Source of the DNA: Euprymna scolopes
Taxonomy: Eukaryota
Assembly: GCA_053919585.1 (NCBI GenBank)
Contig: CM132786.1
Length of the DNA stretch: 64,000 nt
Direction: 5' to 3' (one strand)
The notes beneath the pieces were generated by a model. That model was not told where the DNA came from and made no database searches. It saw only the letters and a program-made list of their open reading frames with translations. The stretch's first letter is position 1; each line of letters begins with the position of its first letter. This document shows positions 31,158-64,000 of the stretch, piece after piece. The position numbers and the translations under genes are program-made.

Positions 31158-31810
31158 TATTATTGCCTCACAAGGAACTTTCACACAGGTCTTCAGAGAT
31201 CTTTCCCTGAAAACAGCCTGTGGTGTTCCCTGGAAGCTGAGTGACCACAAGTCTCTCCAGGTTTCTAGTACTCTCCACCTCTATCGATAACATTTGCAAA
31301 TAAATTTGCATTATCGCAACAGCTGCTTGCCATTGATTTCTCATTGGCAGCAGCTATTGGTCTTTGCTGGGATTTGAGTGGCAATAAGCCTCCCCAAAGT
31401 CTCAGTTCTTTTCTCACTTATTCGGCTGAGGTCTGTTTAGTTCATCGGTCTTTCCTTCCTCCTTGTCTCTACTTTTTGGGGGAGGGGCAGTGATGTGGCC
31501 ATGAGGGTAGGGTTGGGTTAGAGAACTTATAGATATGCGGTTTCAGTGTTCTTGGTTCCATGTAGTGTTTCATGTCTTGCCTCACGTGTTGCTCCTGTGT
31601 GTTAGTTTCCACATTCAATGGTTTTTCTTGAAATTTCAGCTGTTGTATTTTTCCAGTCATTCCTTTGATTCCAATTTCTCTCGTTCTTTTTTCGAAGTTT
31701 TTCTGGATTGTTCCTAGTGCTCCTACTATTATAGGTATTATTTGGATTTTCTTAATCTTCCATATCCTTTTCAGCTCTCTGGCTAGCTCTGTGTATTTTC
31801 TTCGTTTCTC

Positions 31811-31811
<1 letters not shown>
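31158..31811 (-). mobile_element. R4/Dong-type LINE 3' fragment
   Basis: The - strand reads KYTELARELKRIWKIKKIQIIPIIVGALGTI; its 3' region is homologous to 17290-17820; an (AAT)n tract sits at its 5' junction. Confidence 0.8.

Positions 31812-31879
<68 letters not shown>
31812..31879. repeat. (TTA)n tract
   Basis: Seen directly. Confidence 0.95.
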
Positions 31880-32149
31880 TGATTCGAACGACGGCGGGTC
31901 GCCGGATCAATTATTATGATTAGAAAAATAAACAATTAAATTGGGAAAATGATTGACATATAATATAATAATATGACAAAAGGAATGTGAAAATAAAAAG
32001 TAGATGTAAACATCATTTTTGGTTCGCATAAACAAATAACTAGATTTTGGTTACATCAGCTGTTGATTTGAGACACGTAATGAAACACATGATGAAATGT
32101 AGATTTGGGGAGATTCTAGCGAGTCGTTAGATGGACATCAGAGAGAACG

Positions 32150-35100
32150 GACGTCTCAAAAAGGAGATTTAACTGTTATTTAACTGCTTCCTTAGTCTAT
32201 TCATCAAAGTTTATTCACGGAAGAAGACTCAGAACATTATTACATGCACTTTAGAGTAGCGTTTAATCACAGCACAACATTTATATTTGCTCTCTATAGT
32301 CATCACAATAACGGAGTAGCAATGCATGAGATTATCGCTAAACAAATTGATCATGCTCTGTCTGCTAATCCATCAGCCAACATTCACGTATGTAGAGATT
32401 TTAATGGTCATAATGTTAAGTATCTAGTTCAATCACATATAATGGTTGACGTAGGGAGGTTTGGCTATGATTTATCTCTCCCTTACAACCTTAGATTGTT
32501 AACGAACATACTCTGTCTTTTAACAATATATTCTAAACTGTGTTCATTCTAAACTCAGTTCTGTCTCCACTATGATGAAACAAAGTATAAAACACTTAAA
32601 TATCCTTCTCCATCGAACAGTGTAACCAATACTTGATGACTTACTGGGATGGTTTCCGACCGTTCATATCGAGCCGACTTCTGTGTAAGTAGAATTCCTC
32701 TGGTATAGCATCTTATTTACCTTCTGGGTTTACTATCACTATATACCCTCCAAAAAATTCCAACAGCTATTGAACAACCAGTCCCGGTACATGACAGAAT
32801 GGGTAGCCGCTATTGCACACGACAACTAATCTACTTCATTTCCTTTAAGCGTCATTAGATGCAGAAGGATTATAGAAACGTTCAGTTTATCGTCAAAAGT
32901 GTGAGAATAGATGTTTGGTTCTCATGAGGCGAATAATACATGAGATCATTAATAAATCTGTCACCTCTATCCCGACCATCATCAACAAATCTGAGGTAAT
33001 TTCGTCAGAATCTGAAAAAAAGCCAAAATATTGCAAGAACTTAACAGCAGACTCAACACTTTGCGATCAAGGTATCTTACTTTCAAAATGTCCTCTCAAA
33101 ATTGAAAATAATCTGACATTCACATATCTGTTCCTAATGTTGCCATCTTCATCATAAATATTGATGCCAGCAAAGCAATTCATTCTGACAATATTCCAAT
33201 TATAGTACTCAAAAAACAGCGACCTAATCTATCACCCATTCTTGCAAAGCTGTCCAATTGATTATTTCCAACACCATGGAAAACCACATTAGTTGACCTT
33301 ATATTTTAAAATAGACGATATCGGTCTTCTGCATCTTAGTATATACCGGCTAGTCTCCTATGTATCATGCGTATGTTGCTTGAATTTGTGTCGAATAGAG
33401 ACATTGTAAACAACCTTAGTAAAAACAACATATTCAATGATAAGCAATATCGCAACCGTCCGGAGAAATCTACAGCTGATGAACTTACTATAAATTCACA
33501 TAGTATCAGTGAATCTATCGCCGGGCGTTTCCTCACAAGAACAATAGCACTTGATATATTAGATGCATTTAATAGGTTTGGCATGTAAATCTTCACAAGA
33601 TTTACAGCTATTGAATATCTGGAAATGTCTTTTAAACCATCTACTCTTTTCTTTCTGGTAGGTTTATACAAATAATCATCGATAGTTAAAAGTCAGAAGC
33701 TCTAAGTATTAATGCTGGCGTTGCTCGGCGATTTATCCTGGTGCCAACTCTCTTCCTTATCTTCATCAATGATCTCCAAAAGCACATTGTTAGTTCATTC
33801 GTTAAGATATACGCAGATGACCCTGCCTTTCAAAGGCCAACACGGACCACGATCTCTTCTCAGACGTCGAGCATGTTGCTAATTTTTACGCATTCAAATT
33901 AAAGCTTTTATATTTTCGCCATAATCGCCCTGATTACCACTTGCCATCAATTGATATGAATGGATCTCGGCTAAAAGAGGATCATTGTTTGGGCAACCTT
34001 CTATGTCTGATCTTTATTCCTTACCTGATATGGAAGATTAAATCAAATCTGTGGCCAAGGTTACCAGAAAAATGTTACGTCATTTTACCGCTAAAGAAGG
34101 TATCTAATTGGCGACGCCATCCTCTACCTGTATAAGATGTCCTAAAATGTTCTGAGTAGCTATTCTTCCTTGAGTAAGTTCAAACTCGGCTTCAAACCCT
34201 ACAACATTTTTCTCACAGAAGAGACGTTGCGAACCTATCACTGCTTTATAAATAGATGGTAAGCGCTCGTTTGAGCTTCAATCTATTGTCCTCTCCTACC
34301 AAAGTTTCATAAACCCACTCTTCCAGCTACGACTATCAATAGTTTCCTTCACGCTCTATTTACGCCGAAATCTGAACGCGACTTCTATTAACAAAGCTTG
34401 TTTCATCTCTGTTCCGCTGATCTTCTTTTGCAGCTCACTAAAATATTGTCGTCTTCCAATTTAAACAAGTTCTTGTTGAGTTGAATGAATGAGAATGAAT
34501 AATTCATTTCTACTTCATTCCCACCACTGATTATTAATACGCTGTTGTCACTGTGACTACCGTACGCTCAATAACCCTTATCCTCGAGTGGCATTCAGGT
34601 CTTTATTTTTATTTTTTTTTACACAGTGATCACCACTTATCGAGGCCCGGAATCCACTCAATGATAAGGGTTATTGCATGTACATTACGTTACTGTGGAG
34701 ATTTGATGAAGTGTTTACTTAAGGGGGCGGTTCATTAGAAATTTGTTAACGTTGGACTTGAACACATCTAAGTTGTAGTCAGGTGGGAAGCAGGCAGACG
34801 GAACAGAGTTCCACAGGCATGCAGTTCTAAGAAAGAAGCTTTGTTCCTCGAATCCGCGTTTTGATTTAGGCACAGATATAGAGTGGGGGAAATTTTTCAC
34901 AGTGGATTAAGCTAGACGGGTGTTTTTCGTGAAAAATTGACGATAGGGGGAACCAGAGATGGGAGTTCAGACGAGCACCTGCTATGGAAAAAACGATAAA
35001 ACAAGGATAGGCTCGCAACGTCTCTTTTGTGGGAGAGAGGTTGCAGGGTAGAGAAAAGGGCATCCCCTTCTAAGCCACGAAGTCTATTTTGTACTCTGTC

Positions 35101-35709
35101 AAGGCAGGATAGGCTGTTTTTAGCAGCTCCTGCCCAGATGGGGCAACAGTAATCATCCTTGGACGTACTTGGCTTTTATACAGATAGAGAAGTGCATCAG
35201 TAGTGAGATATCTTCTGGAGCGGTAGAAGGATCCCACCATCTTTCCAGCGACCTTGGCAACAGACTTGATGTACGTGTTCCATTTCAGATCAGGAGTAAA
35301 GGTCAAGCCCAGAAGCTTGTCAAAATACGGGATCTCACCCAGACGAGAGCCATCCATCACAATTGACGCCAGATGGGGATCAAAGCGTTGATGGTGTAAG
35401 GATAGGAGTTTGGTTTTGGATGCATAAAAGGTAACCAGCCACATCTTCTCCCACTGAACCACGCGCTCGATATCAGAGGAGAGAGAATCAGAGAGAACTT
35501 TGTCATTTACAGCCTTTGATGTGTTTCCGTAGATGGTCGTGTCATCAGCATAGATGTCAACGAATGATTTAAGTATGTGTTTAGGGAGGTCATTGATGTA
35601 GATCAGGAAGAGAGTTGGGCCCAGGATTGCATTTATATTGCAGACCTCCGATTTTTGCCCATCTACCACTACTCTGTGGTCTTTATAATTGATAATTCAC
35701 ATATAAAAA
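32150..35709 (+). mobile_element. Old CR1-group LINE with APE and RT remnants; 3' UTR split by a younger antisense copy
   Basis: ANIHVCRDFNGHN (APE GDFN motif, ORF 32244-32552); RTIALDILDAFNR; YADD at 33810-33821; the 3' UTR runs to 34606 and resumes at 35678-35709. Confidence 0.75.
34607..35677 (-). mobile_element. CR1 subfamily B, young 5'-truncated copy with a 9-bp TSD
   Basis: ORF 35070-35669 with YADD, highly similar to 18742-19824; GGTCTTTAT duplicated at 34598-34606 and 35678-35686. Confidence 0.92.
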
Positions 35710-38388: not shown

Positions 38389-39720
38389 TTTTTTACATGG
38401 TAGTCACTACGTATCAAGGCCCGGAAGCCACTCGGTGATAAGGTTTATTGCGTGTGCAGTAGTCAATGGGATAGTATCGTAGTAATCGTTAGTAATGGAC
38501 ATTTGATAAAGTGTCTTACTTAAAGGAGAGGGTTATCAGAAATTTGTTTATGTTGGACTTGAAGACATCCAAGTTGTAGTCAGGTGGCAAACAGCCAAAT
38601 GGATTAAAGTTCCACAGGCATGCACTTCTAAAAAAGAAGCTTTGTTCATAGAATTTACGTTTTGATTTAGGAAGAGATAAAGAGTGGGGAAAATTATTGA
38701 GAGTGGTTTCAGTTAGACGGGTGTTTTTCGTGAAAGATTCGTGATAGGGGCAGAGATTCGAGCTCAGACGAGCACTTTCCATGGGAATAACGATAAAACA
38801 AAGACAGGCTCGCAACGTCTCTTTTGTGGGAGAGAGGTTGCAAGGAAGAGAAAAGGGCGTCCCCCACTAGGCCACGAAGTCTATTTTGTACTCTGTCAAG
38901 GCAGGATAGGCTGTTTGTAGCAGCTCCTGCCCAGATGGGGCAACAGTACTCAATCCTTGGACGTACTTGGCTTTTATACAGATAGAGAATTGCATCAGTA
39001 GTGAAATATCTTCTGGAGCGATAGAAGGATCCTACTATTTTTCCAGCGACCTTGGCAACAGATTTGATGTACATGTTCCATTTCAGGTCGTGAGTAAAGG
39101 TCAATCCCAGAAGCTTATCAAAACATGGACCCTCCCCTAGACGAGAGCCATCAATTTCAATTGATGCCAGATGGGGATCAGAGTGTTAATGATGTAAAGA
39201 TAGGAGCTTGGTTTTAGATGTATTAAAAGTAACCAGCCACCTCTTCCCCTACTGTACCATGCGCTCAAGATCAGAGGAGAGAGAATAACAGAACTTTGTC
39301 ATTTGCGGCCATAGATGGTCGTGTCATCAGCATAGATGTCAACGAATAATTTAAGTATATGATTTGGGAGATCATTGATGTAGATAAGGAAGAGAGTTGG
39401 GCCCAGGATGGACCCCTGAGGGACTCCAGCATTAATACTGTTGGCCTCTGATTTCTGCCCATTAACCACTGCTCTTATGAGTCTATCAGAGAGAAATGTT
39501 TTAATGATTGAGAAAACATTTCCAGTTATACCGTAGCTGGAAATCTTTTGAAGTAGGTCCTTCTGCCATACCTTATTGAAGGTCTTTGATATGTCAAGAG
39601 CAATTGCCCTAGAAAAGAAAGCCTTTGTCGAGAGATTCACTAATGTCTATGAGATATAACCGTTAGTACATCTGCTGTAGATTTGACCGAACGGAAACCA
39701 TATTGCATGTCACTAAGAAG
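38389..39720 (-). mobile_element. CR1 subfamily B, longer 5'-truncated copy
   Basis: ORFs 39299-39640 (ALDISKTFNKVW, GVPQGSILGP, YADD), 38709-39104 and 38516-38815; 3' UTR and A-tail. Confidence 0.92.
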
Positions 39721-39850: not shown

Positions 39851-40249
39851 TGATGGAGCAAAATATAGAAGATAAAGGATAAATAACTATTATTTTATCA
39901 TTATTAATCATCGAATCAAAATCACATAACTATTATATAACAATTACTGCTAATGGAATTAAAAAATTATGTACTCCTATTTTCTTTTTACATTTTTACT
40001 TGAATATTTATTTATTTTTACTGAATTCTTCTTTTAATTCTCTGTTTTATCACTTCGACATTATTGCTTATGCCTGATTTATTGTTTTCGTCTCTATTCG
40101 CATACTCGATGTTTGATATTTTTTAGATTTTGATATATACTTTATTTACAATCGGTTGAGTTTTCTAAATATAAATTTGATCAATCTACCTTTTTATCTG
40201 TATATCCGATGTCTGAATGTTTATATTTTAATATAAATTCTAATTTCAA

Positions 40250-43200
40250 TGGTTTATGTAATTTTGATCGACATGGCTTTTGTCATAAAAAAATATCTAC
40301 AGGAATTTCCTTGAAATCTTATTTGGTTTTGTTATACCGGATTCTCTTAGGTTCTCGCTGTGTCCATTCTGATGGCTATCATCTTTCCTGTGCTCCACTT
40401 TCATCTGGACATATATATCTAAAAGACTTTTCCAATACTCCGAACTGTTATGTGGATTATCTTATTTACGAATTTTTATCAGAATTTCACTCTCAACTGA
40501 AGTTAAACTTTTCGATTTTTAAAGCAGTTGCTACTTTTTTCCAAAGTGCTTTTCTAAGTATTTTACTTGGACTTTTAGAAAATTTGGAACCCTTAAGAAT
40601 GTTACCATAGACTTTTAGAAAATTTGGAACCCTTAAGAATGTTACCATAGACTTTTAGACAATTTGGAACCCTTAAGAATGTTACCATAGACTTTTAGAA
40701 AATTTGGAACCCTTAAGAATGTTACCATAGACTTTTAGAAAATTTGGAACCCTAAAGAATGTTACCATAGACTTTTAGAAAATTTGGAACCCTTAAGAAT
40801 GTTACCATAGACTTTTAGAAAATTTGGAACCCTTAAGAATGTTACCATAGACTTTTAGAAAATTTGGAACCCTTAAGAATGTTAGCATAGACTTTTAGAA
40901 AATTTGGAACCCTTAAGAATGTTACCATAGACTTTTAGAAAATTTGGAACCCTTAAGAATGTTACCATAGACTTTTAGAAAATTTGGAACCCTTAAGAAT
41001 GTTACCATAGACTTTTAGAAAATTTGGAACCCTTAAGAATGTTACCATAGACTTTTAATAAATTTGGAACCCTTAAGAATGTTACCATAGACTTTTAGAA
41101 AATTTGGAACCCTTAAGAATGTTACCATAGACTTTTAGAAAACTTGGAACCCTTAAGAATGTTACCATAGACTTTTAGAAAATTTGGAACCCTTAAGAAT
41201 GTTACCATAGACTTTTAGAAAATTTGGAACCCTTAAGAATGTTACCATAGACTTTTAGAAAATTTGGAACCCTTAAGAATGTTACCATAGACTTTTAGAA
41301 AATTTGGAACCCTTAAGAATGTTACCATAGACTTTTAGAAAATTTGGAACCCTTAAGAATGTTACCATAGACTTTTAGAAAATTTGGAACCCTTAAGAAT
41401 GTTACCATAGACTTTTAGAAAATTTGGAACCCTTAAGAATGTTAGCATAGACTTTTAGAAAATTTGGAACCCTTAAGAATGTTAGCATAGACTTTTAGAA
41501 AATTTGGAACCCTTAAGAATGTTACCATAGACTTTTAGAAAATTTGGAACCCTTAAGAATGTTACCATAGACTTTTAGAAAATTTGGAACCCTTAAGAAT
41601 GTTACCATAGACTTTTAGAAAACTTTGAACCCTTAAGAATGTTACCATAGACTTTTAGAAAATTTGGAACCCTTAAGAATGTTACCATAGACTTTTAGAA
41701 AATTTGGAACCCTTAAGAATGTTAGCATAGACTTTTAGAAAATTTGGAACCCTTAAGAATGTTACCATAGACTTTTAGAAAATTTGGAACCCTTAAGAAT
41801 GTTAGCATAGACTTTTAGAAAATTTGGAACCCTTAAGAATGTTACCATAGACTTTTAGAAAATTTGGAACCCTTAAGAATGTTAGCATAGACTTTTAGAA
41901 AATTTGGAACCCTTAAGAATGTTACCATAGACTTTTAGAAAATTTGGAACCCTTAAGAATGTTACCATAGACTTTTAGAAAATTTGGAATCCTTAAGAAT
42001 GTTACCATAGACTTTTAGAAAATTTGGAACCCTTAAGAATGTTACCATAGACTTTTAGAAAATTTGGAACCATTAAGAATGTTACCATAGACTTTTAGAA
42101 AATTTGGAACCCTTAAGAATGTTACCATAGACTTTTAGAAAATTTGGAACCCTTAAGAATGTTACCATAGACTTTTAGAAAATTTGGAACCCTTAAGAAT
42201 GTTACCATAGACTTTTAGAAAATTTGGAACCCTTAAGAATGTTACCATAGACTTTTAGAAAATTTGGAACCCTTAAGAATGTTACCATAGACTTTTAGAA
42301 AATTTGGAACCCTTAAGAATGTTACCATAGACTTTTAGAAAATTTGGAACCCTTAAGAATGTTACCATAGACTTTTAGACAATTTGGAACCCTTAAGAAT
42401 GTTAGCATAGACTTTTAGAAAATTTGGAACCCTTAAGAATGTTACCATAGACTTTTAGAAAATTTGGAACCCTTAAGAATGTTACCATAGACTTTTAGAA
42501 AATTTGGAACCCTTAAGAATGTTAGCATAGACTTTTAGAAAATTTGGAACCCTTAAGAATGTTACCATAGACTTTTAGAAAATTTGGAACCCTTAAGAAT
42601 GTTAGCATAGACTTTTAGAAAATTTGGAACCCTTAAGAATGTTACCATAGACTTTTAGAAAATTTGGAACCCTTAAGAATGTTACCATAGACTTTTAGAA
42701 AATTTGGAACCCTTAAGAATGTTACCATAGACTTTTAGAAAATTTGGAACCCTTAAGAATGTTACCATAGACTTTTAGAAAATTTGGAACCCTTAAGAAT
42801 GTTACCATAGACTTTTAGAAAATTTGGAACCCTTAAGAATGTTACCATAGACTTTTAGAAAATTTGGAACCCTTAAGAATGTTACCATAGACTTTTAGAA
42901 AATTTGGAACCCTTAAGAATGTTACCATAGACTTTTAGAAAATTTGGAACCCTTAAGAATGTTACCATAGACTTTTAGAAAATTTGGAACCCTTAAGAAT
43001 GTTACCATAGACTTTTAGAAAATTTGGAACCCTTAAGAATGTTACCATAGACTTTTAGAAAATTTGGAACCCTTAAGAATGTTACCATAGACTTTTAGAA
43101 AATTTGGAACCCTTAAGAATGTTACCATAGACTTTTAGAAAATTTGGAACCCTTAAGAATGTTACCATAGACTTTTAGAAAATTTGGAACCCTTAAGAAT

Positions 43201-46200
43201 GTTACCATAGACTTTTAGAAAATTTGGAACCCTTAAGAATGTTACCATAGACTTTTAGAAAATTTGGAACCCTTAAGAATGTTACCATAGACTTTTAGAA
43301 AATTTGGAACCCTTAAGAATGTTAACATAGACTTTTAAAAAATTTAAAACCCTTAAGAATGTTACCATAGACTTTTAGAAAATTTGGAAACCTTAAGAAT
43401 GTTACCATAGACTTTTAGAAAATTTGGAACCCTTAAGAATGTTACCATAGACTTTTAGAAAATTTGGAACCCTTAAGAATGTTACCATAGACTTTTAGAA
43501 AATTTGGAACGCTTAAGAATGTTACCATAGACTTTTAGAAAATTTGGAACCCTTAAGAATGTTACCATAGACTTTTAGAAAATTTGGAACCCTTAAGAAT
43601 GTTAGCATAGACTTTTAGAAAATTTGGAACCCTTAAGAATGTTAGCATAGACTTTTAGAAAATATGGAACCCTTAAGAATGTTACCATAGACTTTTAGAA
43701 AATTTGGAACCCTTAAGAATGTTACCATAGACTTTTAGAAAATGTGGAACCCTTAAGAATGTTACCATAGACTTTTAGAAAATTTGGAACCCTTAAGAAT
43801 GTTACCATAGACTTTTAGAAAATTTGGAACCCTTAAGAATGTTAGCATAGACTTTTAGAAAATTTGGAACCCTTAAGAATGTTACCATAGGCTTTTAGAA
43901 AATTTGGAACCCTTAAGAATGTTACCATAGACTTTTAGAAAATTTGGAACCCTTAAGAATGTTACCATAGACTTTTAGAAAATTTGGAACCCTTAAGAAT
44001 GTTACCATAGACTTTTAGAAAATTTGGAACCCTTAAGTATGTTAACATAGACTTTTAGAAAATTTGGAACCCTTAAGAATGTTACCATAGACTTTTAGAA
44101 AATTTGAAAACCTTAAGAATGTTACCATAGACTTTTAGAAAATTTGGAACCCTTAAGAATGTTAGCATAGACTTTTAGAAAATTTGGAACCCTTAAGAAT
44201 GTTACCATAGACTTTTAGAAAATTTGGAACCCTTAAGAATGTTACCATAGACTTTTAGAAAATTTGGAACCCTTAAGAATGTTACCATAGACTTTTAGAA
44301 AATTTGGAACCCTTAAGAATGTTAGCATAGACTTTTAGAAAATTTGGAACCCTTAAGAATGTTACCATAGACTTTTAGAAAATTTGGAACCCTTAAGAAT
44401 GTTACCATAGACTTTTAGAAAATTTGGAACCCTTAAGAATGTTACCATAGACTTTTAGAAAATTTGGAACCCTTAAGAATGTTACCATAGACTTTTAGAA
44501 AATGTGGAACCCTTAAGAATGTTACCATAGACTTTTAGAAAATTTGGAACCCTTAAGAATGTTAGCATAGACTTTTAGAAAATTTGGAACCCTTAAGAAT
44601 GTTAGCATAGACTTTTAGAAAATTTGGAACCCTTAAGAATGTTACCATAGACTTTTAGAAAATTTGGAACCCTTAAGAATGTTAGCATAGACTTTTAGAA
44701 AATTTGGAACCCTTAAGAATGTTAGCATAGACTTTTAGAAAATTTGGAACCCTATAGAATGTTAGCATAGACTTTTAGAAAATTTGGAACCCTTAAGAAT
44801 GTTACCATAGACTTTTAGAAAATTTGGAACCCTTAAGAATGTTACCATAGACTTTTAGAAAATTTGGAACCCTTAAGAATGTTACCATAGACTTTTAGAA
44901 AATTTGGAACCCTTAAGAATGTTACCATAGACTTTTAGAAAATTTGGAACCCTTAAGAATGTTACCATAGACTTTTAGAAAATTTGGAACCCTTAAGAAT
45001 GTTACCATAGACTTTTAGAAAATTTGGAACCCTTAAGAATGTTAGCATAGACTTTTAGAAAATTTGGAACCCTTAAGAATGTTACCATAGACTTTTAGAA
45101 AATTTGGAACCCTTAAGAATGTTAGCATAGACTTTTAGAAAATTTGGAACCCTTAAGAATGTTACCATAGACTTTTAGAAAATTTGGAACCCTTAAGAAT
45201 GTTACCATAGACTTTTAGAAAATGTGGAACCCTTAAGAATGTTACCATAGACTTTTAGAAAATTTGGAACCCTTAAGAATGTTAGCATAGACTTTTAGAA
45301 AATTTGGAACCCTTAAGAATGTTACCATAGACTTTTAGAAAATTTGGAACCCTTAAGAATGTTACCATAGACTTTTAGAAAATTTGGAACCCTTAAGAAT
45401 GTTAGCATAGACTTTTAGAAAATTTGGAACCCTTAAGAATGTTACCATAGACTTTTAGAAAATTTGGAACCCTTAAGAATGTTAGCATAGACTTTTAGAA
45501 AATTTGGAACCCTTAAGAATGTTACCATAGACTTTTAGAAAATTTGGAACCCTTAAGAATGTTACCATAGACTTTTAGAAAATTTGGAACCCTTAAGAAT
45601 GTTACCATAGACTTTTAGAAAATTTGGAACCCTTAAGAATGTTACCATAGACTTTTAGAAACTTTGGAACCCTTAAGAATGTTACCATAGACTTTTAGAA
45701 AATTTGGAACCCTTAAGAATGTTACCATAGACTTTTAGAAAATTTGGAACCCTTAAGAATGTTACCATAGACTTTTAGAAAATTTGGAACCCTTAAGAAT
45801 GTTACCATAGACTTTTAGAAAATTTGGAACCCTTAAGAATGTTACCATAGACTTTTAGAAAATTTGGAACCCTTAAGAATGTTACCATAGACTTTTAGAA
45901 AATTTGGAACCCTTAAGAATGTTACCATAGACTTTTAGAAAATTTGGAACCCTTAAGAATGTTACCATAGACTTTTAGAAAATTTGGAACCCTTAAGAAT
46001 GTTACCATAGACTTTTAGAAAATTTGGAACCCTTAAGAATGTTACCATAGACTTTTAGAAAATTTGGAACCCTTAAGAATGTTACCATAGACTTTTAGAA
46101 AATTTGGAACCCTTAAGAATGTTACCATAGACTTTTAGAAAATTTGGAACCCTTAAGAATGTTACCATAGACTTTTAGAAAATTTGGAATCCTTAAGAAT

Positions 46201-48200
46201 GTTACCATAGACTTTTAGAAAATTTGGAACCCTTAAGAATGTTACCATAGACTTTTAGAAAATTTGGAACCCTTAAGAATGTTACCATAGACTTTTAGAA
46301 AATTTGGAACCCTTAAGAATGTGACCATAGACTTTTAGAAAATTTGGAACCCTTAAGAATGTTACCATAGACTTTTAGAAAATTTGGAACCCTTAAGAAT
46401 GTTACCATAGACTTTTAGAAAATTTGGAACCCTTAAGAATGTTACCATAGACTTTTAGAAAATTTGGAACCCTTAAGAATGTTAGCATAGACTTTTAGAA
46501 AATTTGGAACCCTTAAGAATGTTACCATAGACTTTTAGAAAATTTGGAACCCTTAAGAATGTTACCATAGACTTTTAGAAAATTTGGAACCCTTAAGAAT
46601 GTTACCATAGACTTTTAGAAAATTTGGAACCCTTAAGAATGTTACCATAGACTTTTAGAAAATTTGGAACCCTTAAGAATGTTACCATAGACTTTTAGAA
46701 AATTTGGAACCCTTAAGAATGTTACCATAGACTTTTAGATAATTTGGAACCCTTAAGAATGTTACCATAGACTTTTAGAAAATTTGGAACCCTTAAGAAT
46801 GTTAGCATAGACTTTTAGAAAATTTGGAACCCTTAAGAATGTTACCATAGACTTTTAGAAAATTTGGAACCCTTAAGAATGTTACCATAGACTTTTAGAA
46901 AATTTGGAACCCTTAAGAATGTTACCATAGACTTTTAGAAAATTTGGAACCCTTAAGAATGTTAGCATAGACTTTTAGAAAATTTCGAACCCTTAAGAAT
47001 GTTACCATAGACTTTTAGAAAATTTGGAACCCTTAAGAATGTTACCATAGACTTTTAGAAAATTTGGAACCCTTAAGAATGTTACCATAGACTTTTAGAA
47101 AATTTGGAACCCTTAAGAATGTTACCATAGACTTTTAGAAAATTTGGAACCCTTAAGAATGTTACCATAGACTTTTAGAAAATTTGGAACCCTTAAGAAT
47201 GTTACCATAGACTTTTAGAAAATTTGGAACCCTAAAGAATGTTACCATAGACTTTTAGAAAATTTGGAACCCTTAAGAATGTTACAATAGACTTGTAGAA
47301 AATTTGGAACCCTAAAGAATGTTACCATAGACTTTTAGAAAATTTGGAACCCTTAAGAATGTTACCATAGACTTTTAGAAAATTTGGAACCCTTAAGAAT
47401 GTTACCATAGACTTTTAGAAAATTTGGAACCCTTAAGAATGTTACCATAGACTTTTAGAAAATTTGGAACCCTTAAGAATGTTACCATAGACTTTTAGAA
47501 AATTTGGAACCCTTAAGAATGTTACCATAGACTTTTAGAAAATTTGGAACCCTTAAGAATGTTACCATAGACTTTTAGAAAATTTGGAACCCTTAAGAAT
47601 GTTACCATAGACTTTTAGAAAATTTGGAACCCTTAAGAATGTTACCATAGACTTTTAGAAAATTTGGAACCCTTAAGAATGTTACCATAGACTTTTAGAA
47701 AATTTGGAACCCTTAAGAATGTTACCATAGACTTTTAGAAAATTTGGAACCCTTAAGAATGTTACCATAGACTTTTAGAAAATTTGGAACCCTTAAGAAT
47801 GTTACCATAGACTTTTAGAAAATTTGGAACCCTTAAGAATGTTACCATAGACTTTTAGAAAATTTGGAACCCTTAAGAATGTTACCATAGACTTTTAGAA
47901 AATTTGGAACCCTTAAGAATGTTACCATAGACTTTCTGTACAGCTTTGATATTTCTCCTTTCATTTACTAGTAATCTGTTGGTTTTTGTTTTTTACTTTT
48001 TGTTAAACTCATACTGTTTTTTTTTCTTATAAATTTCCATATTTCTTATCTGCTTTTTCTTTTCCATTCCTATTTTTTCCGCTGTTTCTTTTTTTAATTC
48101 CCCGACGTTTCCTTTTTCTGTTATTGTCTTTTCATTTTTAATGATCTTCCTTATTTCTTTGTAATCACTATTTTCTATTTACTGGTGCCTTTTAATTTTT
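40250..48200 (-). pseudogene. Possible LINE ORF1-like remnant interrupted by the 40-bp array
   Basis: With the array collapsed to one unit the - strand reads MKGEISKLYRKSMVTFLRVPNFLKVQVKYLEKHFGK; a decayed CRY(C)YDKSH....(C) knuckle-like segment lies near 40260-40303. Family assignment is tentative. Confidence 0.35.
40571..47935. repeat. 40-bp tandem satellite, 184 units, near-homogeneous
   Basis: Monomer ACTTTTAGAAAATTTGGAACCCTTAAGAATGTTACCATAG; the register is unchanged from 40571 to 47931 (7360 bp / 40 = 184); substitutions only. Confidence 0.99.
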
Positions 48201-48817
48201 TAAGTTTATCATTCACATCTACTTAATTACTTCTGTGTTATTATATTTTAATGTTTTATTTTTGTATTTTATATTTTCTTTAATACTTCTTAATATATCC
48301 TTTATTAATTTCTTATCTTTTATGTTTATGTTAGTTTTTATATAATGCTGGCCCTACTCACCTTCTTATGAGTTGACGTCCGACAATAATCAAAAGATAA
48401 ATCATGTGTCAGGCAAATATATGTAAGAATTTTTACAGAATCGTACGGATTATGTCTGAATGAAAAAAACTCAATATTCAACTGATACACACTTATTACA
48501 CTATACATGCAAAATAGCAAACAGGTGTATGCACAAAATAAATTTCCTTTGAGTTACAAATGCATTAATATATAAATGGTATTCATAGAAAAACATGTAA
48601 GTTCTGTCGAAGAAATATGTTGCACAAATGTCCCAGGAACGAACATTTATACTTTAAACAACCTTCGTCTTACAGAATGAAATAAACTTTACATCAATCA
48701 TCGTACAACACTTCTAAAATAACATAAAAGTCTACGATGTCGATGGCAGTGTATTGTGTTCAATGCATATGTTTTACAATAAACAGCTATTACAGTTTTT
48801 TATTATATTTCCTTCAT

Positions 48818-50358: not shown

Positions 50359-53300
50359 TCGCATAAAATACATCATATACAATTAATCACATACAATACA
50401 TCGCATAAACCACATCGCATATAATAAATCGCATATAATACATCGCATATAATACATCACATACAATATATCGCATACAATACATCGCATATACTACATC
50501 GCATATAATAAATCGCACACAATACATCGCATATAATACATCGCATATAATAAATCGCATATACTACATCGCATATAATAAATCGCAAACAATATATCAC
50601 ATATAATACATCGCATAAAATACATCGCAAATAATACATCGCATATAATACATCGCATATAATAAATCGTATACAATACATCGCATACAATATATCGCAT
50701 ACAATACATCACATATAATACATCGCATATAATACATCGCAAACAATACATCGCATACAATACATCGCAAACAATAAATCACATACAATACATCGCAAAC
50801 AATAGATCGCATAAAATACATCGAATACAATACATCACATACAATATATCGCATACAATATATCGCAAATAATACATCGCATACTATACATCGCATATAA
50901 TCAATCGCATACAATACATCGCATACAATACATCGCATATAATCAATCGCATACAATACATCGCAAACAATACATCGCATACAATACATCGCATACAATA
51001 CATCGCATATAATAAATCGCATAAAACACATCGCATATAGTACATCGCAAATAATACATCGCATACAATACATCGCAAACAATGAATCACATACAATACA
51101 TCGAAAACAATACATCGCATACAATACATCGAATACAATACATCACATACAATATATCGCATACAATATATCGCAAATAATACATCGCATACAATACATC
51201 GCATATAATCAATCGCATACAATACATCGCATACAATACATCGCATATAATCAATCGCATACAATACATCGCAAACAATACATCGCATACAATACATCGC
51301 ATACAATACATCGCATATAATGAATCGCATAAAATACATCGCATATAGTACATCGCCAATAATACATCGCATACAATACATCGCAAACAATACATCGCAA
51401 ACAATACATCGAATACAATACATCGCATGCAATACATCACATACAATACATCACATACAATACATCACAAACAATACATCACATACAATACATCGCAAAC
51501 AATACATCGCATACAATACATCGCTAACAATACATCACATACAATACATCACATACAATACATACCATACAATACATAACATACAATATATCACAAACAA
51601 TCCATCGAAAAAAAAACATCGCATACAATATATCACATAAAATACATCGCATAAAATACATCACATACAATAAATCACATACAATACATCACAAACAATA
51701 CATCACATACAATACATCGCAAACAATACATCGACTACAATACATCACATACAATACATCGAATACAATACATCAAATACAATACATCACATACAATACA
51801 TCACATACAATAGATCGCATAGAATACATCACATACAATACATCGCTAACAATACATCGCATACAATACATCACATACAATACATCACAAAGAATACATC
51901 ACATACAATACATAACATACAATACATCGCATACAATACATCACATGCAATACATCACATACATTACATTACATACAATACATAACATACAATACATCGC
52001 AAACAATACATCGCATACAATACATAACATACAATACATCGAAAACAATACATCACATACAATACATCACATACAATACATCGCATACAATATATCGCAA
52101 ATAATACATCGCAAACAATACATCGCATACAATACATCGAATACAATACATCACATACGATATATCGCATACAATATATCGCAAATAATACATCGCATAC
52201 AATACATCGCATATAATCAATCGCATACAATACATCGCATACAATACATCGCATATAATCAATCGAATACAATACATAGCAAACAATACATCGCATACAA
52301 TACATCGCATACAATACATCGCATATAATAAATCGCATAAAATACATCGCATATAGTACATCGCAAATAATACATCGCATACAATACATCACAAACAATA
52401 CATCACATACAATACATCGCAAACAATACATCGCATACAATACATCGCTAACAATACATCACATACAATACATCACATACAATACATACCATACAATACA
52501 TAACGTACAATATATCACATACAAAACATCGCATACAATATATCACATACAATACATCGCATAAAATACATCACATACAATAAATCACATACAATACATC
52601 ACAAAACATACATAACATACAATACATCGCAAACAATACATCGAATACAATACATCACAGATAATACATCGAAGACAATACATCAAATACAATACATCAC
52701 ATACAATAAATCACATACAATAGATCGCATAGAATACATCACATACAATACATCGCTAACAATACATCGCATACAATGCATCACATACAATACATCACAT
52801 ACAATACATCACATACAATACATCACATACAATACATCGCATACAATACATCACATGCAATACATCACATACATTACATCACATACAATACATAACATAC
52901 AATACATCGCAAACAATACATCGCATACAATACATAACATACAATACATCGAAAACAATACATCACATACAATACATCACATACAATACATCGCATACAA
53001 TACTTCACATACAATACACCACATACAATCAATCACATACAATACATCACATACAATACATCACATACAATACATCACATACAATTCATCGCATGCAATA
53101 ATTCGAAAACAATACATCGCAAACAATACATAGCAACCAATAAATCGCATACAATACATCGCATGCAATACATCGCAAACAATACATCGCAAACAATATA
53201 TAACATATAATACATTGCATATAATACATCACATACAATATATCGCATACAATACATCGCATATACTACATCGTATATAATAAATCGCAAACAATACATC

Positions 53301-56300
53301 GCATATAATACATCGAATATAATACATCGCAGACAATAAATCGCATATACTATATCGCATATAATAAATCGCCAACAATACATCACATATAATACATCGC
53401 ATATAATACATCGCATATAATACATCGCATATAATACATCGCATATAATAAATCGTATACAATACATCGCATGCAATATATCGCATACAATACATCACAT
53501 ATAATGCATCGCATATAATACATCGCAAACAATACATCGCATACAATACATCGCAAACAATACATCACATACAATACATCGCAAACAATACATCGCATAC
53601 AATACATCGAATACAATACATCACATACAATATATCGCATACAATATATCGCAAATGATACATCGCATACAATACATCGCATATAATCAATCGCATTCAA
53701 TACATCGCATACAATACATCGCATATAATCAATCGCATACAATACATCGCAAACAATACATCGCATACAATACATCGCATACAATACATCGCATATAATA
53801 AATCGCATAAAATACATCGCATATAGTACATCGCAAATAATACATCGCATACAATACATCGCAAACAATACATCGCAAACAATACATCGCATACAATACA
53901 TCGCATGCAATACATCACATACAATACATAACATACAATACATCACAAACAATACATCACATACAATACATCGCAAACAATACATCGCATACAATACATC
54001 GCTAACAATACATCACATACAATACATCACATTCAATACATCACATACAATACATAACATACAATATATCACATACAATACATCGCCAAAAAAAACATCG
54101 CATAAAATACATCACATACAACACATCGCATACAATACATCACATACAATGAATCACATACAATACATCACAAAGAATACATCACATACAATACATCGCA
54201 AACAATACATCGCATACCATACATCACATACAATACATCACATACAATACATCACATACAATACATCGCATACAATACATCCCATATAATACATCGCAAA
54301 CAATACATCGCATATAATACATCGCATATAATACATCATATACAATACATCGCATATAATACATCACATACAATATTTCGCATACAAGTCATCGCATATA
54401 ATACATCGCATATAATACATCGCATACAATACATCGCATATAATACATCGCATATAATACATCGCATATAATACATCGCATACAAAACATCACATATAAT
54501 ACATCGCATATAATACATCGCCTACAATATATCGCAAACAATACATCGCATATAATACATCGCATATAATACATCGCATACAATACATCGCATACAATGA
54601 ATCGGATACAATACATCGCAAACAACACATCAAAAAAAAATACATCGCATACAATACATCGCATACAAGACATCGGATACATCACATACAATACATCACA
54701 TACAATACAGCATACAATACCTCGCATATAATACATCGCATACAATATATCGCATATAATACATCGCAAAGAATACATCGCATACAATACATAACATACA
54801 ATGCATCGCAAACAATACATCGAAAACAATACATCGCATACAAGTCATCGCATGCGATAATTCGCAAACAATACATCGCAAACAATACATAGCAACCAAT
54901 AAATCGCATACAATACATCGCATGAAATACATCGAAAACAATACATCGCAAACAATATATCACACATAATACATTGCATATAATACATCACATACAATAT
55001 ATCGCATACAATACATCGCATATACTACATCGTATATAATAAATCGCAAACAATACATCGCATATAATACATCGAATATAATACATCGCATACAATAAAT
55101 CGCATATACTACATCGCATATAATAAATCGCCAACAATACATCACATATAATACATCGCATATAATACATCGCATATAATACATCGCATATAATACATCG
55201 CATATAATAAATCGTATACAATACATCGCATGCGATATATCGCATACAATACATCACATATAATGCATCGCATATAATACATCGCAAACAATACATCGCC
55301 TACAATACATCGCAAACAATACATCACATACAATACATCGCAAACAATACATCGCATACAATACATCGAATACAATACATCACATACAATATATCGCATA
55401 CAATATATCGCAAATAATACATCGCATACAATACATCGCATATAATCAATCGCATTCAATACATCGCATACAATACATCGCATATAATCAATCGCATACA
55501 ATACATCGCAAACAATACATCGCATACAATAAATCGCATACAATACATCGCATATAATAAATCGCATAAAATACATCGCATATAGTACATCGCAAATAAT
55601 ACATCGCATACAATACATCGCAAACAATACATCGCAAACAATACATCGCATACAATACATCGCATGCAATACATCACATACAATACATAACATACAATAC
55701 ATCACAAACAATACATCACATACAATACATCGCAAACAATACATCGCATACAATACATCGCTAACAATACATCACATACAATACATCACATTCAATACAT
55801 CACATACAATACATAACATACAATATATCACATACAATACATCGCCAAAAAAAACATCGCATAAAATACATCACATACAACACATCGCATACAATACATC
55901 ACATACAATGAATCACATACAATACATCACAAACAATACATAACATACAATACATCGCAAACAATACATCGCATACAATACATCACATATTATACATCGC
56001 ATACAATACATCACATACAATACATCACATACAATAAATCACAAACAATAAATCGCATAGAATACATCAAATACAATACATCGCTAACCATACATCGCAT
56101 ACAATACATCACACACAAAACATCACAAAGAATACATCACATACAATACATCACATACAATACATCGCATACAATACATCACATGCAATACATCTCATAC
56201 AATACATCACATACAATACATCACATAAAATACATCGCAAACAATACATCGCATATAATACATAACATACAATACATCGAAAACAATACATCACATACAA

Positions 56301-59300
56301 TACATCACATACAATACATCGCATACAATACATCACAGACAATACATCACATATATTACATCACATACAATGCATCACATAAAATACATAACATACAATA
56401 CATCACATACAATACATAACATACAATACATCACATACAATACATCGCATACAATACATCCCATATAATACATCTCAAACAATACATCGCATATAATACA
56501 TCGCATAAAATACATCACATACAATACATCGCATATAATACATCACATACAATATATCCCATACAAGTCATCGAATCTAATACATCGCATATAATACATC
56601 GCATATAATACATCGCATACAATATATCGCATATAATGCATCGCATAAATTACATCGCATACAATACATCACATATAATACATCGCATATAATACATCGC
56701 CTACAATATATCGCAAACAATACATCGCTTACAATACATCCCATATAATACATCGCAAAAAATACATCGCACATAATACATCGCATATAATACATCACAT
56801 ATAATACATCGCATATAATACATCGCCTACAATATATCGCAAACAATACATCGCATACAATACATCGCATATAATACATCGCATACAATACATCGCATAC
56901 AATAAATCGGATATAATACATCGCAAACAACACATCAAAAAAATACATCGCATACAATACATCGCATACAAGACATCGGATACATCACATACAATACATC
57001 ACATACAATACAGCATACAATACCTCGCATATAATACATCGCATACAATATATCGCATATAATACATCGCAAAGAATACATCGCATACAATACATAACAT
57101 ACAATGCATCGCAAACAATACATCGAAAACAATACATCGCACACAATTCATCGCATGCAATAATTCGCAAACAATACATCGCAAACAATATATAAACTAT
57201 AATACATTGCATATAATACATCACATAACCTATATCGCATACAATACATCGCATATACTACATCGTATATAATAAATCGAAAAAAATACATCGCATATAA
57301 TACATCGCATATAATACATCGCATATAATATATCGCATATACTACATCGCATATAATAAATCGCAAACAATACATCACATATAATACATCGCATATAATA
57401 CATCGCATATAATACATCGCATATAATACATCGCATATAATAAAATGTATACAATACACTGCATGCAATATATCGCATACAATACATCACATATAATACA
57501 TCGCATATAATACATCGCAAACAATACATCGCATACAATACATCGCAAACAATACATCACATACAATACATCGCTAACAATACATCGCATACAATACATC
57601 GAATACAATACATCACATACAATATATCGCATACAATATATCACAAATTATACATCGCATACAATACATCGCAAACAATACCTCGCAAACAATACATCGC
57701 ATACAATACATCGCATGCAATACATCACATACAATACATCACATACAATACATCACAAACAATACATCACATACAATACATCGCAAACAATACATCGCAT
57801 ACGATACATTGCAAACAATACATCACATACAATACATCACATACAATAAATCACATACAATACATAACATACAGTATATCACATACAATACATCGCAAAA
57901 AAAACATCGCATAAAATACATCACATACAACACATCGCATACAATACATCACATACAATGAATCACATAAAATACATCACAAACAATACATCACATACAA
58001 TACATCGCAAACAATACATCGCATACAATACATCACATATTATACATCGAATACAATACATCACATACAATACATCACAGACAATAAATCACAAACAATA
58101 GATCGCATAGAATACATCACATACAATACATCGCTAACAATACATCGCATACAACACATCACATACAATACATCACAAATAATACATCACATACAATACA
58201 TCGCATACAATACATCATATGCAATACATCTCATACAATACATCACATACAATACATCACATACAATACATCGCAAACAATACATCGCATACAATACATA
58301 ACATACAATACATCGAAAACAATACATCACATACAATACATCACATACAATACATCGCATACAATACATCACATACAATACATCACATACATTACATCAC
58401 ATACAATACATCACATACAATACATAACATACAATACATCACATACAATACATCACATACAATACATCGCATACAATACATCCCATATAATACATCGCAA
58501 GCAATACATCGCATATAATACATCGCATACAATACATCACATACAATACATCGCATATAATACATCACATACAATATATCGCATACAAGTCATCGCATAT
58601 AATACATCGCCTATAATACATCGCATATAATACATCGCATACAATATATCGCATATAATACATCGCATATAATTCATCGCATACAATACATCACATATAA
58701 TACATCGCATATAATACATCGCCTACAATATATCGCAAACAATACATCGCTTACAATACATCGCATATAATACATAGCATACAATACATCGCATACAATA
58801 AATCGGATATAATACATCGCAAACAACACATCAAAAAAAAATACATCGCATAATATTCATCGCATACAAGACATCGGATACATCACATACAATACATCAC
58901 ATACAATACAGCATACAATACCTCGCATATAATACATCGCATACAATATATCGCATATAATACATCGCAAAGTATACATCGCATACAATACATAACATAC
59001 AATGCATCGCAAACAATACATCGAAAACAATACATCGCATACAATTCATCGCATGCAATAATTTGCAAACAATATATCGCAAACAATACATACCAAACAA
59101 CAAATCGCATACAATACATCGCATGCAATACATCGAAAACAATACATCGAAAACAATATATAACATATAATACATTGCATATAATACATCACATACAATA
59201 TATCGCATACAATACATCGCATATACTACATCGCATATAATAAATCGCAAACAATACATCGCATATAATAAATCGCATATAATACATAGCATATAATAAA

Positions 59301-62300
59301 TCGCATATACTACATCGCATATAATAAATCGCAAACAATACATCACATATAATACATAGCATATAATAAATCGCATAAAATACATCGCATATAATACATC
59401 GCATATAATAAATCGTATACAATACATCGCATGCAATATATCGCATAGAATACATCACATATAATACATCGCATATAATACATCGCAAACAATACATCGC
59501 ATACAATACATCGCAAACAATACATCACATACAATACATCGCAAACAATACATCGCATACAATACATCGAATACAATACATCACATACAATATATCGCAT
59601 ACAATATATCGCAAATAATACTTCGCATACAATACATCGCATATAATCAATCGCATTCAATACATCGCATACAATACATCGCATATAATCAATCGCATAC
59701 AATACATCGCAAACAATACATCGCATACAATACATCGCATACAATACATCGCATACAATACATCGCATATAAAAAATCGCATAAAATACATCGCATATAG
59801 TACATCTCAAATAATAAATCGCATACAATACATCGCAAACAATACATCGCAAACAATACATCGCATACAATACATCACATGCAATACATCACAAACAATA
59901 CATCACGTACAATACATCGCAAACAATACATCGCATACAATACATCGCTAACAATACATCACATACAATACATCACATACAATACATCACATACAATACA
60001 TAACATACAATATATCACATACAATATATCGCAAAAAAAACATCGCATACAATACATCGCATACAATACATGACATACAATACATCACATATAATAAATC
60101 ACATACAATACATCAGAAACAATACATAACATACAATACATCGCAAGCAATACATCGCATACAATACATCACATACAATACATCGAATACAATACATCAC
60201 ATACAATACATCACATACAATAAATCACATACAATACATCGCATACAATACATCACATACAATACATCACAAAGAATACATCACATACAATACATCACAT
60301 ACAATACATCGCATACAATACATCACATGCAATACATCACATACAATACATCACATACAATACATCACATACAATACATCGCAAACAATACATCGCATAC
60401 AATACATAACATACAATACATCGAAACAAATACATCACATACAATACATCACATACAATACATCGCATACAATACATCACATACAATACATCACATACAA
60501 TACATCACATACAATACATCGCATACGATACATCCCATATAATACATCGCAAACAATACATCGCATATAATACATCGCATATAATACATCACATACAATA
60601 CATCGCATATAATACATCACATACAATATATCGCATACAAGTCATCGCATATAATACATCGCATATAATACATCGCATATAATACATCGCATACAATATA
60701 TCGCATATAATACATCGCATATAATACATCGCATATAATACATCGCATACAATACATCACATATAATACATCGCATATAATACATCGCCTACAATATATC
60801 GCAAACAATACAGCGCATACAATACATCGCATATAATACATCGCATACACTACATCGCATACAATAAATCGGATATAATACATCGCAAACAACACATCAA
60901 AAAAAATACATCGCATAAAATACATCGAATACAAGACATCGGATACATCACATACAATACATCACATACAATACAGCATACAATACCTCGCATATAATAC
61001 ATCGCATAAAATATATCGCATATAATACATCGCAAAGAATACATCGAATACAATACATAACATACAATGCATCGCAAACAATACATCGAAAACAATACAT
61101 CGCATACAATTCATCGCATGCAATAATTCGCAAACAATACATCGCAAAAAAATACATAGCAAACAATAAATCGCATACAATACATCGCATGCAATATATC
61201 GAAAACAATACATCGCAAACAATATATAACATATAATACATCACATACAATATATCGCATACAATATATCGCAAATAATACTTCGCATACAATACATCGC
61301 ATATAATCAATCGCATACAATACATCGCATACAATACATCGCAAATAATCAATCGCATACAATACATCGCAAACAATACATCGCATACAATACATCGCAT
61401 ACAATACATCGCATACAATACATCGCATATAATGAATCGCATAAAATACATCGCATATAGTACATCGCAAATAATACATCGCATACAATACATCACAAAC
61501 AATACATCGCAAACAATACATCGCATACAATATATCGCATGCAATACATCACAAACAATACATCACGTACAATACATCGCAAACAATACATCGCATACAA
61601 TACATCGCTAACAATACATCACATACAATAAATCACATACAATACATCACATACAATACATAACATACAATATATCACATACAATACATCGCAAAAAAAC
61701 ATCGCATACAATACATCAAATACAATACATTTCATACAATACATAACATACAATAAATCACATACAATACATCAGAAACAAGACATAACATACAATACAT
61801 CGCAAACAATACATCGCATACAATACATCACATACAATACATCGAATACAATACATCGAATACAATACATCACATACAATAAATCACATACAATACATCG
61901 CATACAATACATCACATACAATACATCACAAAGAATACATCACATACAATACATCACATACAATACATCGCATACAATACATCACATGCAATACATCACA
62001 TACAATACATCACATACAATACATCACATACAATACATCGCAAACAATACATCGCATACAATACATAACATACAATACATCGACACCAATACATCACATA
62101 CAATACATCACATACAATACATCGCATACAATACATCACATACAATACATCACATACAATACATCACATACAATACATCGCATACAATACATCCCATATA
62201 ATACATCGCATACAATACATCGCATATAATACATCGCATATAATACATCACATACAATACATCGCATATAATACATCACATACAATATATCGCATACAAG

Positions 62301-64000
62301 TCATCGCATATAATACATCGCATATAATACATCGCATATAATACATCGCATACAATATATCGCATATAATACATCGCATATAATACATCGCATATAATAC
62401 ATCGCATACAATACGTCACATATAATACATCGCATATAATACATCGCCTACAATATATCGCAAACAATACAGCGCATACAATACATCGCATATAATACAT
62501 CGCATACACTACATCGCATACAATAAATCGGATATAATACATCGCAAACAACACATCAAAAAAAATACATCGCATACAATACAAAGCATACAAGACATCG
62601 GATACATCACATACAATACATCACATACAATACAGCATACAATACCTCGCATATAATACATCGCATACAATATATCGCATATAATACATCGCAAAGAATA
62701 CATCGAATACAATACATAACATACAATGCATCGCAAACAATACATCGAAAACAATACATCGCATACAATTCATCGCATGCAATAATTCGCAAACAATACA
62801 TCGCAAAAAAATACATAGCAAACAATAAATCGCATACAATACATCGCATGCAATATATCGAAAACAATACATCGCAAACAATATATAACATATAATACAT
62901 CACATACAATATATCGCATACAATATATCGCAAATAATACTTCGCATACAATACATCGCATATAATCAATCGCATACAATACATCGCATACAATACATCG
63001 CATATAATCAATCGCATACAATACATCGCAAACAATACATCGCATACAATACATCGCATACAATACATCGCATACAATACATCGCATATAAAAAATCGCA
63101 TAAAATACATCGCATATAGTACATCGCAAATAATACATCGCATACAATACATCACAAACAATACATCGCAAACAATACATCGCATACAATACATCGCATG
63201 CAATACATCACAAACAATACATCACGTACAATACATCGCAAACAATACATCGCATACAATACATCGCTAACAATACATCACATACAATAAATCACATACA
63301 ATACATCACATACAATACATAACATACAATATATCACATACAATACATCGCAAAAAAAACATCGCATACAATACATCAAATACAATACATTTCATACAAT
63401 ACATAACATACAATAAATCACATACAATACATCAGAAACAAGACATAACATACAATACATCGCAAACAATACATCGCATACAATACATCACATACAATAC
63501 ATCGAATACAATACATCGAATACAATACATCACATACAATAAATCACATACAATACATCGCATACAATACATCACATACAATACATCACAAAGAATACAT
63601 CACATACAATACATCACATACAATACATCGCATACAATACATCACATGCAATACATCACATACAATACATCACATACAATTCATCACATACAATACATCG
63701 CAAACAATACATCGCATACAATACATAACATACAATACATCGAAACCAATACATCACATACAATACATCACATACAATACATCGCATACAATACATCCCA
63801 TATAATACATCGCAAACAATACATCGCATATAATACATCGCATATAATACATCACATACAATGCATCGCATATAATACATCACATACAATATATCGCATA
63901 CAAGTCATCGCATATAATACATCGCATATAATACATCGCATATAATACATCGCATACAATATATCGCATATAATACATCGCATATAATACATCGCATATA
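50359..64000. repeat. 14-bp satellite (consensus AATACATCRCATAY), roughly 970 units, with higher-order repeats; runs off the window
   Basis: Continuous 14-bp periodicity; the variant AGACATCGGATAC recurs at 54668, 56971, 58869, 60934 and 62593. Confidence 0.99.

Follow-up and report, generated by a model that had tools for sequence, protein, structure and literature searches.

The window analysed here, which is a stretch of DNA of 64,000 nucleotides taken at its full length, carries a tandem array of 184 units of 40 bp closed by a terminal GACTTT (positions 40570..47935, plus strand), and this array is both young and real. It probably originated in place, through a slippage or unequal-exchange duplication between direct repeats that were already present, and subsequently grew in several steps. 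A close relative carries a single unit at the same site, as do most of the other copies of the dispersed repeat in which the array lies.

Structure and Uniqueness of the Array

The register is held across all 184 units with no indel, and both borders are sharp, each falling inside a GACTTT hexamer, so that the unit count and the non-degenerate edges described in the original prediction stand. The substitutions, 63 in number (0.86% from the majority unit) and of 25 distinct kinds, leave 131 of the 184 units identical to the majority unit, and the final 15 units of the array are all identical. The AflII site, anticipated once per unit, is retained in 179/184 units. No stable hairpin was found in the unit, with values of -0.8 to -3.0 kcal/mol for one to three units. 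Being a head-to-tail array of units within the range of 10-100 bp, the locus (184 x 40 bp) corresponds to a VNTR or minisatellite.

A 27-mer of the unit, searched with at most one mismatch, had 179 matches in the 5.9-Gb assembly, and all 179 lie inside the array at 40570-47935. The monomer thus forms no other array in this assembly, which settles one of the checks proposed with the original prediction, and the array occupies a single locus as lineage-specific VNTRs do. A classical satellite DNA family, of high copy number and spread over several loci or heterochromatic blocks, does not describe this one locus of 7.4 kb.

The 40-back tandem joint of the array was seen in five sequencing runs that carry the same species label (organism A; runs X2, X4, X5, X6, and X7). 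These runs come from three studies, one of which may be the source of the assembly, leaving at least two, while a further run (X1), in which nothing matched the unique flank, gives no information on the joint. The original prediction had itself named an assembly artefact as what would overturn it, and the recurrence of the joint in five runs from three studies shows that the array is no such artefact. In X2, the joint lies in a cyclic contig of 70 nt with a depth of 288, versus 5.15 for the flank, a ratio that corresponds to 56 units versus the 184 assembled. Unit reads in four raw runs numbered 8, 5, 9, and 4, where approximately 16 each would be expected for 184 units on both haplotypes (in sum, 26 versus 65). 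Based on these counts of only 4-9 reads per run, to which a read filter was applied and which include three libraries of unstated type, the number of units per haploid set amounts to about 44-101 across the four runs, and to 73 when they are pooled (95% interval 47-107). This suggests shorter or mixed alleles in other individuals, the counts being small, and the assembled length could be overstated, since the read counts correspond to fewer than 184 units. The array is likely neutral and variable in length between individuals.

A Single Unit in a Close Relative

The unexpanded state was found in run X3, from another organism (organism B), in which one contig of 301 nt with a flat depth of 4.7 spans both flanks. 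Positions 143-301 of this contig correspond to 40457-40615 of the window and positions 1-188 to 47890-48078, the two placements overlapping by one unit plus the hexamer, and no 40-back joint was found in X3 (one contig from one run, at depth 4.7). Organism B thus has the left flank, one unit, and the right flank. Its unit is the majority unit of the array, with one difference in 159 nt that is located in the flank, and there is no listed difference at either GACTTT hexamer. The variant of organism B at 40546 is also present in X2, and its right-flank variants at 47983, 47988, and 48002 are also found in X6 reads of organism A; because they have these flank variants in common, the two organisms must be very close. 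The single-unit version that was to be looked for in relatives is therefore present at the orthologous site, as seen in one contig of one run, and the array is likely younger than the split between A and B at this locus, judging from the sequences compared. The idea of a satellite "caught at birth" holds on the evolutionary scale only, as the array is already found in several individuals.

The Host Is an Old Dispersed Repeat

For either flank, the genome has many old copies, at about 65-79% identity. The left part of this host repeat (40004..40569, plus strand) is apparently non-coding, with paralogs at 66-79% identity and stops shared in six frames, and the right part (47936..48372, plus strand; paralogs at 65-87%) is joined to the left one through one unit in the paralogs as well as in the contig of organism B. 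By these sequence identities the host is an old dispersed repeat, and the decayed state assumed for it in the original prediction is confirmed. In all, 34 distinct paralogs extend as far as the left edge of the array. The 40-bp segment is present once and at full length in 22 of them, and 11/34 are truncated, internally deleted, or rearranged (as classed by eye). The array unit accordingly has its homologue in a segment that the dispersed repeat contains once, as in minisatellites derived from transposable elements (TE), and a general lack of the 40-mer between the paralogous flanks, which would have pointed to an insertion from elsewhere, is not what the family displays. The one remaining paralog (L127) is expanded: it has approximately 9 copies of approximately 35 bp with variable T runs (L127 1227-1542; G000:C24 near 26.742 Mb); their left breakpoint is the one used in the array, and on the other side they extend to an internal repeat of the motif. 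This paralog expanded the segment independently. In another one (L004, near 1900-1950), the left part has the opposite orientation, the switch being located where the unit segment begins with a near-palindrome.

The array had been proposed to interrupt a dead open reading frame on the minus strand. An uninterrupted frame does exist on this strand when the array is collapsed to one unit, running over 37 codons from M at 47964 to K at 40534 (the flanks being read separately). However, with a stop frequency of 8.6% in the minus-strand flanks, an open frame of 37 codons has a chance of 0.04 per frame and of 0.11 for any of three, and it is for this reason weak evidence for a coding sequence. Stops common to at least half of the copies were found in all six frames among 40 + 63 aligned paralog pieces, an analysis that left out 30 loci from the search with L055, swamped by an unrelated 600-bp insertion. 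Shared stops fall within the proposed frame itself, for example at 40519, 40462, 48046, and 48151, and in each of the three minus-strand frames most paralogs have common stops within 60 bp (40462-40519), with further ones in the right flank. Among the plus-strand frames, there is one with just 2 shared stops on the left side, versus a mean of 5, which we judge to be due to chance. Column diversity in the paralogs is flat over codon positions, with no codon-position signal, and a Pfam search with 12 read-through frames of the flanks gave nothing at the cut-off, the one hit (E 0.054) being far under it. With stops shared in six frames, no codon signal, and no match to a protein family, a decayed retroelement reading frame does not account for the host, and this part of the original prediction had to be abandoned.

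The copies of the family have their right end in common, often beside (TA)n, and vary at their left end. On the plus strand, a motif of the family is located approximately 430 bp to the right of the array; it has a hammerhead core in 17/30 copies (the region being present in 26/30), and its hammerhead-like helices I and II and the closing pair of helix III are paired in 86% of cells, versus 32-50% in slid controls. No covariation above that of shuffles was detected in this motif, and an Rfam search on 19 loci returned one 5S match and miRNA noise caused by microsatellites, without any hammerhead family. In the window, a broken 5' half of the motif is found at 48362..48372 (plus strand), where the homology to the family ends. 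The family of this motif counts 2758 first-look candidates in the genome; in the loci L131-L160 the motif lies approximately 100-150 bp inside the shared right end. Remnants of a GIY-YIG domain were found upstream in 3/21 loci, and DNA homology could not join them to the host. Further to the right, at 48494..48542 (plus strand), there is a weak match of 49 bp (80%, E 1e-5) to the end of a GIY-YIG frame in another locus (L052; E 1.6e-4 against PF01541, just under the cut-off), which is probably a separate Penelope-like remnant, as judged from this alignment. The hammerhead-like motif, the shared right end, and the (TA)n tract fit with Penelope-like elements, and there was no full-length copy among the loci fetched. 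A Penelope-like or related non-autonomous origin of the host thus seems probable, and the array would then have arisen in the non-coding 3' region of such an element, read on the plus strand.

A Degenerate Direct Repeat at the Array Edges

The two hexamers at the borders are part of longer repeats that could be recognized by comparison of the paralogs. An imperfect direct repeat of approximately 37 bp has its left copy at 40552..40588 (plus strand; exact core GACTTT at 40570-40575) and its right copy at 47912..47948 (plus strand; GACTTT at 47930-47935). When the 37 bases of the left edge were compared with those of the right edge in the 22 intact paralogs and L023, all of these (23/23) scored above their local null median, at a spacing of 39-43 bp. 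For the copy of the window alone, the extended similarity is not significant, as 15% of null positions score as high. The spacing equals 40 in 13/23 paralogs and is a multiple of three in only 5/23. Direct repeats thus flanked the unit in the paralogs prior to any expansion, and the likeness of the edges in 23/23 paralogs indicates that the family carried an old, degenerate two-copy repeat of which GACTTT is the exact core in this copy. The bare 6-bp microhomology put forward in the original prediction is to be replaced by this older and longer repeat.

Probable Growth of the Array in Several Steps

At position 36 of the unit, a C-to-G variant is found in 27 units, from unit 8 to unit 160 (40850..46969, plus strand), which implies that it arose early and was then copied. 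Sharing of variants is concentrated at a lag of 18 units (11 pairs, P 0.005; standardised z 8.6, P 0.003), and among rare variants alone, 5 pairs are separated by 18 or 19 units (P 0.0004), with most of them lying in units 69-123. This part of the array (43290..45489, plus strand) is made up of approximately three blocks, each 18-19 units (720-760 bp) long, with rare variants in common (lag 18, z 8.6, family-wise P 0.003). For the common variant alone, periods 9 and 18 have a nominal P of 0.003 and a family-wise P of 0.06, which is marginal. The array thus contains internal duplications of blocks of variant units, as VNTRs do (lag 18, P 0.003-0.005), and together with the variant found in 27 units they record several steps, which does not agree with a single burst. 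The recent amplification in place of one single-copy 40-bp segment between GACTTT repeats is in turn upheld by organism B, by 22/34 paralogs, and by the restriction of the monomer to this locus.

For the first duplication, of which only the start and end states are observed, we propose that mis-pairing at the GACTTT core might have generated a perfect dimer, whose perfect units could then have expanded. The C-to-G variant would have arisen while the array was still short and spread thereafter, and later duplications would have involved blocks of 18-19 units (720-760 bp). The present data do not discriminate between slippage, unequal sister exchange, and conversion. Two further ideas on growth were dismissed when other arrays of the genome (see below) were considered: nucleosome-sized steps (360/720 bp) as a general rule, since they are absent in the arrays on C1 and C3, and error-prone synthesis as the cause of the transversion excess (6 transitions, 19 transversions), since the other arrays are alike in this respect (19:38 and 1:6).

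Alternative Scenarios

The most serious competitor to stepwise growth is one burst, by rolling circle or break-induced replication, in which a short template was copied over and over; the strongest version has a circle of 18 units (720 bp) or 9 units as the template and assumes that later conversion blurred the variants. Such a burst would explain why four phases modulo 18 account for 17/27 G variants (units 22-148), as well as the periods 9 and 18 (nominal P 0.003), the absence of indels, and the low divergence. Yet the periodicity has a family-wise P of 0.06, whole rows of 18 units are without G variants, and rare variants are in common only within units 69-117; two other arrays have no lag of 360/720 bp, a multi-unit template itself requires prior amplification of the monomer, and a burst from the monomer only cannot yield a variant scattered through 27 units. 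We therefore regard a single burst as quite unlikely. A bolder reading would make the 40-bp segment of a fossil Penelope-like family a recurrent nursery of arrays, and would let the present array be born in two stages, by microhomology-guided duplication of the monomer and then by repeated copying of an 18-unit (720-bp) looped or circular template. This is an unlikely scenario as well; if it were true, the copies of the family would be natural replicates for studying what lets a duplication become a satellite.

The remaining scenarios concern the age, the host, and the reality of the array. It might predate the split between A and B, in which case B, or the haplotype seen there, would have lost it through a deletion bounded by the terminal hexamers. 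That the B unit is the majority unit (the one difference in 159 nt being in the flank) would agree with this, as would the variants at 40546, 47983, 47988, and 48002, also found in A runs, since lineage sorting is possible between organisms that are so close. However, the units are only 0.86% away from the majority unit, and one unit is the ancestral state in the paralogs, so that an exact return to one requires an extra event; a loss in B is less economical than a younger array, and we find it very unlikely. The interruption of a decayed minus-strand retroelement frame is highly improbable in spite of the 37 open codons and the A-rich minus strand, given the stops in all three minus frames (40462-40519 and right flank), the flat column diversity, the rarity of edge spacings that are a multiple of three (5/23 paralogs), the 12 frames without a Pfam family at the cut-off, and the location of the hammerhead-like motif on the plus strand. 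Finally, to an insertion from elsewhere or an assembly artefact we assign an almost negligible probability. Read counts of fewer than 184 units in other runs leave room for an overstated assembled length, but the assembly contains no second array of the monomer, which is homologous to the paralogs' own segment, and the joint recurs in five runs from three studies. Amplification in place from a pre-existing direct repeat, followed by growth in several steps, is thus the reading that we retain.

Other Arrays and Repeats in the Genome

A single, arbitrarily chosen 10-mer anchor repeated three times at a spacing of 34-44 bp had 346 matches in the genome, with 14 loci among the first 100 of the matches listed; the reversed control had 871 and 3597 matches. 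Six loci were examined, and two of them contain arrays that are sharp-edged and without indels according to TRF, one of 282 x 40 bp (11.3 kb) and one of 55 x 39 bp. Having found such sharp arrays in 2/6 loci, we conclude that young kilobase arrays are common in this genome. The larger one, which is unrelated to the array of the window, extends from L207 6612 to L208 8002 (G000:C1 192.253-192.264 Mb), and its variants are locally clustered with no 18-unit period; beside it lies a tandem repeat of 218 bp (L208 8723-9658; 4.4 copies, 93% matches). The smaller one (L210 3828-5979; G000:C3 near 131.22 Mb) has 97% matches and a 7-bp terminal repeat.

The window itself contains other repeats. A 14-bp tandem array of approximately 15.5 kb (83-84% matches) occupies 50359-63998 and continues to G000:C4:3599824; it is older than the 40-bp array, from which it is only 2.4 kb away. 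A degenerate tandem repeat of 157-159 bp is found at 20415-21600 (approximately 7.5 copies, 74% matches). Fragments of non-LTR reverse transcriptases were detected at 39299-39646 and 35070-35696 (RVT_1 match), and those at 18664-19470 and 8970-9896 look alike by eye. A frame at 31469-31906 (minus strand), next to an (AAT)n tract, presumably resembles the C-terminal endonuclease of R4/Dong elements.

Comparison With Known Systems

The mechanism of minisatellite birth is known, and the locus is a clean example of a TE-derived, lineage-specific VNTR; since such arrays also recur in this genome, it is in itself unsurprising. A literature search by features rather than by organism name found no description of this array. 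Its value lies in the controls that come with it: the ortholog is unexpanded, as are more than 20 paralogs, several other paralogs have internal deletions, and one has undergone an independent expansion of small size. With these, it can be tested directly if the first duplication is seeded by a short exact core or by the longer degenerate repeat, and how block duplication follows. The array is also likely to be a species-diagnostic marker of variable length.

The host resembles Penelope-like elements in several respects. Its motif is like their type I hammerheads in the core CUGAUGA / GAAA, the helix II closed by G-C, the short helix I, and the palindromic loop of helix III, and the family is like them in that copies share one end, beside which (TA)n is found, and vary at the other, as far as these features are described in PMC4209133 and PMC8557442. 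Unlike in Penelope-like elements, no reverse transcriptase or GIY-YIG frame is tied to the host, which may be a non-autonomous relative. In Ogre retroelements, satellites are reported to arise in one species from short repeats in the non-coding 3' region (PMC7004042); the arrays described there are already multi-copy and homogeneous in active elements and the satellites abundant, whereas ours is one locus of 7.4 kb in a decayed copy.

Among single-locus arrays, the intronic CACNA1C repeat TRACT is reported to be a single 30-mer in chimpanzee and to span 3-30 kb in humans, with an expansion proposed to proceed via perfect tracts (10.1101/311795; PMC13131567). The array is like it in having one unit in the sister and a multi-kilobase array at a single locus in the other, interspersed unit variants, and, probably, variation in length (as given for TRACT in 10.1101/311795), and unlike it in its 40-bp unit, its location in a dispersed repeat that is a fossil and has many paralogs in the unexpanded state, and the absence of a linked gene or function. 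Human-specific VNTRs, for which a mean unit of 40 bp and up to 300 copies at a single locus are given in PMC8327921, are similar in that their length is described there as changing by duplications or deletions of blocks and not unit by unit; they differ in that the set as defined in that study excludes retrotransposon-associated repeats, whereas this array lies inside a dispersed repeat of a non-human animal. TE-derived sequences are stated to make up 23% of human mini- and satellites (PMC6947457, PMC3389668). In the model of Haber and Louis 1998 and Jurka and Gentles 2006, as cited in PMC6947457 and PMC3389668, the first duplication takes place between repeats of 5-10 bp that flank the future unit and is followed by slippage, conversion, or unequal crossing-over. 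The array departs from this model in that the hexamer belongs, as the core, to a longer repeat that is degenerate and the host is old, not young; in addition, both a single-unit ortholog and an independent paralogous expansion are available for it.
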